A stretch of 16,099 bases of DNA, taken from the IMG/VR virus record IMGVR_UViG_2802429227_000005, positions 1 through 16,099 of that record. One strand, 5' to 3'. Below are positions 7,757 to 11,469 of this stretch, piece by piece (the first letter of the stretch is position 1; each line of letters starts with the position of its first letter). Under the pieces are notes generated by a model that saw only the letters and a list, made by a program, of their open reading frames with translations, ran no database searches and was not told the origin of the DNA. The stretch is from a virus. Taxonomy: Duplodnaviria > Heunggongvirae > Uroviricota > Caudoviricetes. The position numbers and the translations under genes were made by a program.

Positions 7757-8407
7757 TTAAGGAAGGTTTGCTAGCTTGGCATCAACGACAACGCCAATGA
7801 TTTTACAGTTCCCATTGATTTCAATCATTGGGTATTGTGGATTGAGTGGTTTCAGGAATTTTCTACCGGCATCAATAACTAACTTTTTGAATGTCGCCTC
7901 GTTTTCTCCTTCAAGTTTGGCGACTACCAGCTTTCCATTACGTGGTTCGACTTCTGGGTCGACGAGAATAATCATCCCCTCAGGAATACTCAGTCCTGCC
8001 GGGGCAGTCATTGAATCGCCTTTAACGTCGAGCCAAAAAGAGTCTTCAGAACAATCTACCGTTGTGTCGTACCAGTTATCTATTGCACGCCTATGATATG
8101 GCTCTACAGCTTCCATCCAACATCCTGCGCTTACCCAACTAATTAGAGGATACGAACCTCTTGGATCATGCCTGCTGTGATAGGCAATGTTTGAAAGACT
8201 ATCCTCTCCTTTCAACAGGTAATCAGGGGAGCACTGCAAAGCCTTGGCTAAGGCCAATAGGTTTTCGCCATTGGGCTCAGTTTCAGATCGCTCCCACTGG
8301 GAAATAGCAACATTAGACACGCCAACCATCTTGCCAAGGGCAGCCTGCCTAATCTTGAGTTCTTTTCTGCGAGCGCGAATACGCTCACCCATCAGTTGTG
8401 TATTCAT
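7757..8407 (-). CDS. c2: Phage repressor, P22 C2 type (HTH_XRE N-terminal domain plus LexA/S24-like C-terminal domain; 216 aa)
   Basis: Translation MNTQLMGERIRARRKELKIRQAALGKMVGVSNVAISQWERSETEP... matches the P22 c2 repressor almost residue for residue as I recall it; C-terminal GDSM and K (Ser-Lys dyad) self-cleavage motifs are present. Confidence 0.9.
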   Translation of the reverse strand: MNTQLMGERIRARRKELKIRQAALGKMVGVSNVAISQWERSETEPNGENLLALAKALQCSPDYLLKGEDSLSNIAYHSRHDPRGSYPLISWVSAGCWMEAVEPYHRRAIDNWYDTTVDCSEDSFWLDVKGDSMTAPAGLSIPEGMIILVDPEVEPRNGKLVVAKLEGENEATFKKLVIDAGRKFLKPLNPQYPMIEINGNCKIIGVVVDAKLANLP

Positions 8408-8473
8408 AGTTAAGACATCTTAAATAAACTTGACTTAAGATTCCTTTGGTGGATAATTTAAGTGTTCTTTAAT
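8408..8473 (+). promoter_or_regulatory. OR operator triplet with PR (-35 TTGACT at 8430..8435, -10 GATAAT at 8453..8458) and divergent PRM
   Basis: Three TTAAG-N4-CTT(A/T)(A/G) palindromes at 8410..8423, 8435..8448 and 8458..8471, spaced about 23-25 bp apart, overlapping PR; OR3 abuts the c2 start codon. Confidence 0.7.
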
Positions 8474-8487
8474 TTCGGAGCGAGTCT

Positions 8488-8673
8488 ATGTACAAAAAAG
8501 ATGTTATTGACCACTTCGGAACCCAGCGTGCTGTTGCTAAAGCACTAGGCATTAGCGATGCAGCAGTCTCTCAGTGGAAAGAAGTTATCCCAGAGAAAGA
8601 CGCCTATCGATTGGAAATCGTTACAGCTGGCGCCCTGAAGTATCAAGAAAGTGCTTACCGCCAAGCGGCATAA
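8488..8673 (+). CDS. cro: Cro repressor, P22 type (61 aa)
   Basis: Translation MYKKDVIDHFGTQRAVAKALGISDAAVSQWKEVIPEKDAYRLEIVTAGALKYQESAYRQAA matches P22 Cro as I recall it; GGAG Shine-Dalgarno; divergent from c2 across OR. Confidence 0.85.
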   Translation: MYKKDVIDHFGTQRAVAKALGISDAAVSQWKEVIPEKDAYRLEIVTAGALKYQESAYRQAA

Positions 8674-8778: not shown

Positions 8779-8811
8779 AAATTAACAAATGGCACAAGCA
8801 AGCTACAGCAA
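8779..8811 (-). promoter_or_regulatory. pRE-like CII-dependent promoter: TTGC-N6-TTGC (8798..8811) then 13 nt then -10 TAATTT (8779..8784), leftward
   Basis: Minus strand GCTTGCTGTAGCTTGC-TTGTGCCATTTGT-TAATTT; the TTGC repeats lie in the first codons of the cII-like gene, as in lambda pRE. Confidence 0.55.
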
Positions 8812-9085
8812 GCCAACACAGCGAGAAATTGATCGCGCTGAAACTGATTTACTCATCAACCTGTCAACGCTTACCCAGCGCGGTCTGGCAAAGATGATTG
8901 GCTGTCATGAATCGAAGATAAGCAGAACGGACTGGAGATTTATTGCTTCGGTCTTGTGTGCTTTCGGAATGGCATCAGACATCAGTCCGATTAGCAGGGC
9001 TTTTAAGTATGCGCTTGATGAAATCACAAAGAAAAAATCCCCGGTGGCCGCCGGGGACTCTAAGCAAATTGATATGCAATTCTGA
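8789..9085 (+). CDS. c1: CII-like transcriptional activator (P22 c1 type; 98 aa)
   Basis: Pattern similarity to lambda CII: ...ESKISRTDWRF... against ...KSQISRWKRDW..., and C-terminus TKKKSPVAAGDSKQIDMQF against TNKKRPAATERSEQIQMEF; position after cro and nutR. Confidence 0.75.
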   Translation: MAQASYSKPTQREIDRAETDLLINLSTLTQRGLAKMIGCHESKISRTDWRFIASVLCAFGMASDISPISRAFKYALDEITKKKSPVAAGDSKQIDMQF

Positions 9086-9108
9086 GGGAATTACTGGATC
9101 AATCCACA
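9031..9108 (-). ncRNA. OOP-like antisense RNA candidate (about 78 nt), with an extended -10 promoter and a terminator inside the 3' end of the cII-like gene
   Basis: Minus-strand hairpin CCCCGG-CGGCCA-CCGGGG (plus 9039..9056) followed by ATTTTTTC; about 77 nt upstream on the minus strand is TGtCATAAT (plus 9115..9123). Geometry mirrors lambda pO/OOP. Confidence 0.5.
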
Positions 9109-9117
9109 GGAGTCATT

Positions 9118-9279
9118 ATGACAAAACGTCGTAAGAAATACCAGGAAAAAGAAGAGATTCGACACCCTGATTCACCTGAGGGATTAGTGGTAGCCGCAGC
9201 AAATAACAGGGCGTTCGCAGAGCGCCTTGTTGGTGTTTACAGACTAGCCAAAGCAGGAGTGAAACATGGGCGTCGTTAA
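9118..9279 (+). CDS. Hypothetical small basic protein (53 aa; below the ORF-track cutoff) between c1 and the O-like gene
   Basis: Manual translation [53 protein letters not shown]; strong AGGAG Shine-Dalgarno 5 nt upstream of the ATG; overlaps the O-like start by 14 nt in another frame. Confidence 0.3.
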   Translation: MTKRRKKYQEKEEIRHPDSPEGLVVAAANNRAFAERLVGVYRLAKAGVKHGRR

Positions 9280-10096
9280 GTTAGCTGATTACAGGCCTCA
9301 ACTGGAGGTCGTGGAGCATCGCGTGGCAGAACTCGAAGATGGCTACACTCGGACTGCAAACACACTGTTAGAAGCCGCCATGCTTTCTGGACTTACTCTA
9401 CATCAGTTACTGATTGTTATGGCTGTGTGGCGCAAGACATACGGTTACAACAAAAAAATAGATTGGATCGGAAACGAACAGTTCGCTGAACTCACTGGCA
9501 TGGCACCAACCAAATGCTCTACCGCCAAAAACGAGCTTATCAGAATGGGAGTTCTCATTCAGGTGGGGCGTCAAGTTGGTATGAATACAAACATTTCCGA
9601 GTGGAAAACGAAAGTTAACGGATTCGGTAAAACATTTACCAATTCGGTAAAACAAACCTTCACCAAATCGGTAAAAAGCAATTTACCGAATCAGTCAAAC
9701 ACAAAAGACAATATACAAAAGACAATAAATACAAATACCCCCTTACCCCCTAACGGGGGCGGCGATGGGCAGGTTAAACCTGAACGTCGCAAGGCAGAAC
9801 GAATCGACTACGAATCCTTCCTGAACGCCTACAACACCGAAGTCGGTGACAGACTTCCACATGCTGTTGCGGTCAACGAGAAACGCAAACGCCGCCTGAA
9901 GAAAATCATCCCGCAACTGAAAACGCCAAACGTGGACGGTTTCAGAGCGTATGTCAGGGCGTTTGTGCATCAGGCCAAGCCGTTTTACTTCGGAGACAAC
10001 GACACGGGCTGGACGGCAGATTTTGATTACCTGCTGAGGGAAGATTCGTTAACGGGAGTGCGGGAAGGGAAGTTTGCAGACAGGGGGATTGCATGA
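9266..10096 (+). CDS. O: Replication initiator, lambda O-like N-terminal domain (P22 gene 18 type; 276 aa)
   Basis: N-terminal region aligns with lambda O ([18 protein letters not shown]...WRKTYGYNK...NISEW against VADLDDGYARLSNMLLEA...LRKTYGWNK...NISEW); iterons inside the gene. Confidence 0.8.
9622..9737. repeat. Origin of replication inside the O-like gene: ATTCGGTAAAAC iterons followed by an AT-rich stretch
   Basis: Direct repeats ATTCGGTAAAAC at 9622..9633 and 9642..9653, degenerate AATCGGTAAAAA at 9666..9677, inverted TTTACCGAAT at 9682..9691, then AT-rich 9700..9737. Confidence 0.6.
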
Positions 10097-11469
10097 AACA
10101 GGATATCGAAGCGAGCGTTATCGGTGGCTTGCTGATTGGTGGATTAACACCAACTGCCAGTGACGTTCTGGCAACGCTGGAGCCGGAAGCGTTTTCAATT
10201 CCGCTCTACCGGAAAGCCTTCGAGGTTATCCGCAAGCAGGCGAGAAACAGAAACCTAATCGACGCGCTGATGGTTGCCGAGGCGTGCGGAGAGGAGCATT
10301 TCACGTCAATCCTGATGACCAGCAAAAACTGCCCGAGTGCCGCAAACCTGAAGGGATATGCCGGAATGGTCGCGGATAACTATCACCGCCGTCTGGTGCT
10401 GGAAATCATGGATGAAATGCGTGAACCAATTCAGAGCGGAACCATCGACGCATCGAGTCAGGCGATGGATGAACTTGTAAAGCGTCTTTCAGCCATCAGA
10501 AAGCCACGTGACGAGGTTAAACCTGTACGGTTAGGGGAAATCATCACCGACTACACTGACACGCTTGACAGGCGTCTGAGGAACGGAGAAGAGTCCGATA
10601 CCCTGAAGACCGGAATCGAAGAACTTGATGCCATCACCGGAGGGATGAACGCGGAAGACCTTGTGATAATCGCTGCTCGTCCTGGTATGGGGAAAACCGA
10701 ACTGGCGCTGAAGATTGCCGAAGGCGTTGCAAGCCGCGTTATTCCTGGTTCTGACGTCCGGCGCGGAGTGTTGATTTTCTCGATGGAAATGAGCGCATTG
10801 CAGATTGCAGAGCGAAGCATTGCCAACGCCGGGAGGATGCCGGTTAGCGTGCTGCGAAATCCTGCTTCGATGGATGACGAAGGCTGGGCGCGCGTTGCTA
10901 ACGGCATGAGTCAGCTTGCAGATTTGGATGTATGGGTAGTCGATGCCTCGCGGTTATCGGTCGAAGAAATACGCTCAATCGCAGAACGGCACAAACAGGA
11001 AAATCCAAACCTGTCACTCATCATGGTGGATTATCTTGGCCTGATTGAGAAGCCGAAAGCAGATCGCAACGACCTCGCAATTGCTCACATCTCCGGAAGC
11101 CTGAAGGCGATGGCGAAAGACCTGAAAACACCGGTTATCCCCCTGAGTCAGCTTTCGCGCGATGTTGAGAAGCGACCAAACAAACGCCCGACAAACGCAG
11201 ATTTGCGTGATTCAGGAAGCATTGAACAGGACGCAGACTCAATCATCATGCTCTATCGGGAAGCGGTATATGACGAGAACAGTAGCGCCGCGCCATTTGC
11301 TGAAATCATCGTGACGAAAAACCGTTTTGGCTCACTTGGTACGGTTTACCAGCGGTTCTGCAACGGACACTTTGTTGCATGTGACCAGGATGAAGCCAGA
11401 CAGATTTGCACAACATCAAATGCACCCGCTGCACGTGGCAGACGATATGCACAAGGGGCTGACGTATGA
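10093..11469 (+). CDS. Replicative DNA helicase, DnaB-like (P22 gene 12 type; 458 aa)
   Basis: Walker A ([15 protein letters not shown]), DnaB-type architecture and length; ATGA overlap with the O-like stop. Confidence 0.85.

Follow-up and report, generated by a model that had tools for sequence, protein, structure and literature searches.

A probable theta-type replication origin with P22-like iterons inside the initiator gene of a lambdoid prophage

The window, by which we mean the whole 16,099-nucleotide stretch of DNA that was analysed, contains a lambdoid early-right operon (Table 1). Its immunity genes are of P22 type, and they are followed by a replication initiator gene and a helicase gene that were recognized from the ORF list and by Pfam searches. 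The initiator is a Phage_rep_O protein (aa 19-113, E=4e-36) with 92% amino acid identity to BTP1 O, 76% to P22 gp18, 71% to HK446 O and 30% to lambda O, while the helicase is 99% identical to that of HK446 and 89% identical to P22 gp12. Rightward transcription, through which the O-like gene would be expressed, probably starts at the pR-like promoter. The small ORF overlapping the start of the O gene has no Pfam match, and a counterpart is absent in lambda; the product of its P22 counterpart, orf48, is named 'tail protein' in RefSeq, which seems to be an annotation error. The interval between the CII-family gene and the O gene holds an oop-like antisense RNA unit (9034-9125, minus strand). The unit includes a terminator-like hairpin with a T-run (9061..9034, minus strand), and a 33-nt block at 9093-9125, ACTGGATCAATCCACAGGAGTCATTATGACAAA, matches a conserved 5′ motif of pO/oop that is given in PMC3349717. 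A search of the full window against Rfam at gathering thresholds yielded no match, the oop-like RNA included.

Table 1. Coordinates of the genes and sequence elements in and around the predicted origin.
Feature	Position	Strand	Details
P22-type c2 repressor	7757-8407	-	202/216 residues identical to P22
pR-like promoter upstream of cro	8430..8457	+	TTGACT-16-GATAAT, 10/12 consensus positions; same position as P22 pR
cro	8488-8673		60/61 identical to P22
CII-family gene	8789-9085
Small ORF, 53 aa, overlapping the O gene start	9118-9279		counterparts HK97 gp53 and P22 orf48
O-like / P22 gp18-like replication initiator gene, 276 aa, with the predicted origin inside	9266..10096	+	ORF list, Pfam
Phage_rep_O N-terminal domain coding region, presumed iteron-binding	9320..9604	+	Pfam aa 19-113
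Iteron 1	9615..9631		TTAACGGATTCGGTAAA; the P22 rep_origin annotation starts at the same base
Iteron 2	9635..9651		TTTACCAATTCGGTAAA; half-sites perfect, 14/17 positions self-complementary
Iteron 3	9659..9675		TTCACCAAATCGGTAAA
Iteron 4	9682..9698		TTTACCGAATCAGTCAA
A+T-rich, A-strand-biased segment, 39 bp, presumed DNA-unwinding element	9699..9737		starts with ACACAAAAGA
G/C-rich inverted repeat	9738..9759		ACCCCCTTACCCCCTAACGGGGG; coincides with the right end of the annotated P22 origin
DnaB-type replicative helicase, P22 gp12-like	10093..11469	+	Pfam DnaB_C E=3e-78 plus DnaB N-terminal domain

Within the initiator gene, a repeat finder and a dyad scan revealed four 17-bp iterons with internal dyad symmetry and the consensus TTTACC-N5-GGTAAA, each with 12-14 of its 17 positions self-complementary. 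Their start-to-start spacing of 20, 24 and 23 bp, roughly two helical turns, is the same as that of the four lambda iterons. Phased A-tracts (at 9629, 9649 and 9673) mark the right edge of iterons 1-3. The array encodes aa 117-145 and sits between the Phage_rep_O N-terminal domain and the C-terminal domain, and the origin as a whole (9615-9759) ends at aa 165 of the O-like protein. The N-terminal domain is presumably a winged-helix or HTH fold. The original prediction had placed two perfect direct repeats, a degenerate third copy and an inverted copy, followed by an AT-rich stretch, in a linker region of the O-like ORF. These elements are present: ATTCGGTAAAAC occurs exactly at 9622-9633 and 9642-9653, copies with two mismatches lie at 9666-9677 (plus strand, AATCGGTAAAAA) and 9680-9691 (minus strand), and the G+C content over 9660-9739 is 0.27-0.32 versus about 0.5 in the flanks. 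The repeats do follow directly on the Pfam domain and precede the C-terminal half, and aa 114-165 would probably form a linker. What had to be redrawn was the repeat unit, which is 17 bp long, dyad-symmetric and present four times, so that the supposed inverted copy is actually the left half of iteron 4. The extent also changed, since the feature begins 7 bp further left than the predicted 9622, so as to take in the left half of iteron 1, and continues to 9759 instead of ending at 9737.

The 16-kb window holds no matches to ATTCGGTAAAAC with up to two mismatches beyond the four named above, and 500 dinucleotide shuffles never gave more than two such matches per 80-bp span, versus four observed. 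A scan with TTTACC-N5-GGTAAA at up to two mismatches, which is biased in its own favour because the iterons themselves supplied the motif, found only the four iterons in 16 kb (shuffles: mean 0.48, maximum 3). This 2-mismatch scan replaced a dyad scan at up to four mismatches, in which shuffles gave clusters as large as the observed one.

The origin of the Salmonella phage P22 was reportedly first described by Backhaus and Petri in 1984. In the RefSeq record of this phage a rep_origin inside gene 18 (NC_002371, 32840-32984), annotated as 'similar to phage lambda' and thus by similarity, aligns to exactly 9615-9759, with 140 of 145 bases identical (96.6%) and full co-linearity. The two regions share the same start, end, layout and place in the gene (offset about 350-495). 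Of the five differences, two change the middle of iteron 2, two fall in separate spacers and the last is in the hairpin loop; all eight half-sites are identical between the window and P22. At the centre of iteron 2 (9641-9645) the window has AATTC, where P22 (32866-32870) and BTP1 have AGATC; a Dam GATC site therefore lies inside iteron 2 of P22, and the window's iteron 2 is without it. P22 gene 18 has been described as carrying four repeats of ~20 bp that are distinct from those of lambda, and P22 gp12 as a DnaB-type helicase (PMC8022706; phage L genome paper). Further, a lambda hybrid in which O-P was swapped for orf48-18-12 of P22 is viable, which places the P22 origin inside the orf48-18-12 segment (PMC3349717).

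To the right of iteron 4, the segment at 9699-9737 has a G+C content of about 0.23-0.27 and an AT skew above 0.5. It includes a 14-bp tandem repeat, ACAAAAGACAATAT/ACAAAAGACAATAA, at 9701-9728 that is identical in P22, BTP1 and HK446 and occurs in a looser version in lambda. The inverted repeat that follows has CCCCC arms at 9738-9742 and 9746-9750 and a GGGGG arm at 9755-9759. Nearly all relatives keep an inverted repeat right of the A-rich segment, although its sequence differs among them. When the window, three IMG/VR loci (L057, L071 and L081) and lambda were compared, the arms read CCCCC/GGGGG in the window, GTCATC/GATGAC in L057 and TCAGAG/CTCTGA in lambda, with ATCCCC/GGGGAT as another variant. 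Since the structure is kept while the sequence changes, this looks like a compensatory pattern at the level of the DNA. The right arm of the lambda origin is likewise a palindrome.

The overall layout is that of the lambda origin, as the original prediction had proposed. In lambda, four dyad iterons (starting at 39034, 39054, 39078 and 39101 of the lambda record) with the 20/24/23 spacing are followed directly by ACACAAAAGACA, an A-rich stretch of ~40 bp and an inverted repeat, and the whole is flanked by the coding regions for the N- and C-terminal domains of a Phage_rep_O protein. The half-sites are different, however, being TCCCTC in lambda and TTTACC in the window, and the two proteins share only 30% identity overall. 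The two systems also differ in how they obtain a helicase: lambda O recruits the host's DnaB through the loader P, whereas the phage in the window encodes a DnaB-type helicase of its own.

Because the array is coding sequence, it could in principle have been selected as protein. The original prediction held that the repeats are read in frame and generate a repeated peptide. The 18-letter peptide is indeed present (aa 120-137), but the two perfect 12-mers, which are 20 bp apart, are read in different frames and give GFGK and NSVK. A common frame, and with it a repeated peptide of 16 letters, is found only for iterons 2 and 3, which are 24 bp apart. One could argue from this peptide, and from where the region lies, with the Pfam domain on one side and the conserved C-terminal half on the other, that the repeats are maintained as a repeated peptide in a flexible initiator linker and that the repetition in the DNA simply follows from it, without a role in cis. 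Several observations speak against this. Iterons 1-4 begin at codon positions 2, 1, 1 and 3, so that all three frames are used; every unit is a DNA palindrome, a property without meaning for a peptide; and other iteron classes (see below) change the peptide yet keep the dyad layout and spacing. Compared with the window, three loci of the P22 class (L014, L015 and L084) have changes at 54-59 of the 98 third codon positions of the N-terminal domain, but at 0 of 48 half-site positions, and so also at none of the 16 third positions among these (Fisher p about 1e-5), while their iteron centres and spacers do vary. Half-sites that stay invariant amid synonymous divergence of ~55%, and that are read in three frames, point to constraint on the DNA and not on the peptide. 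In these sequence comparisons, the invariance, the frames and the palindromic form together rule out a purely peptide-level explanation; we consider selection for the peptide effectively refuted and its probability very slight.

We compared 85 sequences, consisting of 80 IMG/VR loci with O relatives, P22, BTP1, HK446, lambda and the window. The motif ACACAAAAGA was found in 85 of 85, three loci having a single mismatch and none more. It is always read in the same frame and, with few exceptions, corresponds to about aa 141-145; in lambda it is exact. Reading back from this motif at the offsets seen in the window recovered four dyad units in nearly every locus. By their half-sites, the units, all in one register, belong to at least seven iteron classes: TTTACC (P22 and the window), TTAGCY (HK97/HK446), TTAGCA, GTCACC, GTTMCC, TTACCC and TCCCTC (lambda).

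The iteron class follows the N-terminal domain of the initiator. Among 1770 pairs of distinct loci, which are not phylogenetically independent, a shared iteron class was predicted by N-domain identity with an AUC of 0.985 and by C-domain identity with an AUC of 0.71. In 189 of 189 pairs whose C-domains are at least 90% identical but whose iterons are different, the N-domains are no more than 53% identical. The window itself illustrates both sides of this relationship. It has the same iterons as the P22-like loci, with an N-domain that is 95% identical and a C-domain that is only about 59% identical (P22-type loci L020-L022). In contrast, its C-domain and A+T-rich segment are about 100% identical to those of HK446, whose N-domain is 43% identical and whose four iterons, TTAGCC-N5-GGCTAA, occupy the same positions; HK97 and HK446 carry TTAGCC/TTAGCT half-sites, with an identical or nearly identical inverted repeat and helicase. 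The original prediction had named absence of the repeats from O genes with conserved flanks as a finding that would count against it. Taken literally, HK446 is such a case, yet there the repeats have been replaced and not lost. Since HK446 shares the C-terminal domain and the flanks but differs in both the N-domain and the iterons, it supports the view that the N-domain reads the iterons. These natural domain swaps thus support a role in iteron recognition for the N-terminal domain, as far as comparison of sequences can. Class-specific residues of the O-like protein, which stay constant inside one iteron class and change from class to class, cluster at aa 80, 82 and 86 (window 9503-9523), and aa 51 and 55 are two others of this kind; the cluster at aa 80-86 would fit a putative recognition helix.

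The initiator gene (9266-10096) can be described as a three-part mosaic. Its first ~70 nt and everything from about 9697 on are HK97/HK446-like (about 100%), and its middle, comprising the N-domain and the iterons, is P22/BTP1-like. The right-hand junction falls at ACACAAAAGA, after iteron 4, which suggests that this conserved DNA may act as a recombination joint between modules. Because the C-domain and the helicase are HK446-like and not P22-like, the replicon as a whole is a P22/HK97 mosaic. The Salmonella phage BTP1 is the same kind of mosaic, with an origin of P22 specificity and an HK97-type helicase-recruitment module. The TTTACC-N5-GGTAAA half-sites and the P22-type N-domain agree with the P22 specificity class (repP22), whereas the C-terminal domain and the helicase are not those of P22. 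Judged by its sequence, the window is 'repP22' in its origin specificity but not in its whole replicon. More distant variants of the same logic also exist. The Stx phages 933W and P27 resemble the window in gene context and in combining iterons with an AT-rich region, but they have six iterons of lambda type, versus four in the window, and an O protein that is 13 aa longer (PMC7466680). Two IMG/VR loci (L069 and L070) have seven TTAGC-N7-GCTAA iterons, spaced 20, 24, 24, 24, 33 and 23, and a longer O protein. Their arrays lie 165 bp upstream of an anchor, CCACAAAAGA, that resembles ACACAAAAGA, and they recall the six-iteron origins of 933W and P27.

The gene context, the iterons, the A+T-rich segment, the inverted repeat and the co-variation with the N-domain are the sequence features expected of a lambdoid origin, and all of them are present. 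On account of the near-identity and co-linearity with the P22 origin, the lambda spacing, the survey of iteron classes, the co-variation and the constraint on the half-sites, we conclude that positions 9615-9759 are very probably the theta-type replication origin of a P22-like lambdoid prophage, located inside its own initiator gene. The interpretation given in the original prediction is thereby supported as essentially right, for a feature that was already known.

Two other readings of the locus need to be considered. One is that the array serves as a different regulatory element, either an intragenic terminator or attenuator or a set of sites for a regulator other than the O-like protein. 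A consensus scan does mark 9675..9635 on the minus strand as terminator-like. We rejected this candidate: it consists of iterons 2 and 3 pairing together on the antisense strand, only 4 of the 18 pairs in its stem are G-C, and terminator-like matches in the region are no more numerous than in shuffles. The co-variation, moreover, is specific to the N-domain of O. A search for DnaA boxes (TTWTNCACA) found no match in the window and gives no evidence for DnaA involvement. We therefore regard a regulatory element of another kind as highly improbable. The second reading accepts a bona fide P22-type origin by descent but holds that it is inactive, as part of a defective or cryptic prophage. This would be in keeping with the 99% identity of the O region to prophages in the chromosomes of 34 complete E. 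coli genomes, and with the coverage of the window by sequenced free phages, which reaches 65% at most (in Kapi1, the closest). However, the O-like ORF, the helicase ORF, the eight half-sites, the AT-rich segment and the immunity genes are all intact, an O protein that is 100% identical occurs on four IMG/VR viral contigs, and the half-sites are still under purifying selection in the family. An inactive origin thus seems unlikely, if less so than the regulatory alternative, and we favour a functional replication origin.

In lambda, O dimers bind inverted-repeat iterons and open an adjacent A+T region of 40 bp; the binding bends the DNA, and the opening takes place on supercoiled DNA (PMC5043065; PMC7466680). 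For the window, we infer binding, bending, unwinding, helicase recruitment and transcriptional activation from the literature on lambda and P22. By this analogy, dimers of the O-like protein would bind each of the four iterons (9615-9698) through the N-terminal Phage_rep_O domain, and the bound array would wrap into an 'O-some', possibly helped by the phased A-tracts to the right of iterons 1-3. On supercoiled DNA the O-some would then melt the A-rich segment of 39 bp at 9699-9737. The HK97-type C-terminal domain would bring in the phage's own DnaB-type helicase (10093-11469), its presumed partner, and not a loader of the lambda P type. Rightward transcription from the pR-like promoter would supply the proteins and, as in lambda, would probably activate the origin as well. 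A PDB sequence search with the O-like protein returned only chance GPCR matches (E about 0.3), and the single-sequence AlphaFold2 model had a mean pLDDT of 40, which is too low to use.

The lambdoid origin picture was established by about 1980. The kind of feature described here, its position and its near-exact sequence have already been annotated or described, and in this respect the origin is a known and ordinary one that adds nothing to the understanding of lambdoid replication. Its value for annotation is that a prophage origin can be placed at 9615-9759, in a replicon that combines the specificity module of P22 with the helicase-recruitment module of HK97. The survey of iteron classes extends the established picture. 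At least seven classes in one register, their co-variation with the N-domain and the constraint on the DNA may together help in the typing of prophage replicons. We can also speculate, quite tentatively and with doubts that outweigh our confidence, that these origins are built on a fixed chassis, made up of the 20/24/23 slots, ACACAAAAGA, the A-rich DNA-unwinding element and the inverted repeat, into which at least seven cassettes of N-domain plus iterons have been swapped by recombination at ACACAAAAGA, and that aa 80, 82 and 86 may largely set the specificity. If this is true, if some of the classes (GTCACC, GTTMCC, TTACCC and TTAGCA) are undescribed, and if a code relating residues to half-sites is valid, the specificity of lambdoid origins would become predictable, and could be re-engineered, from sequence.
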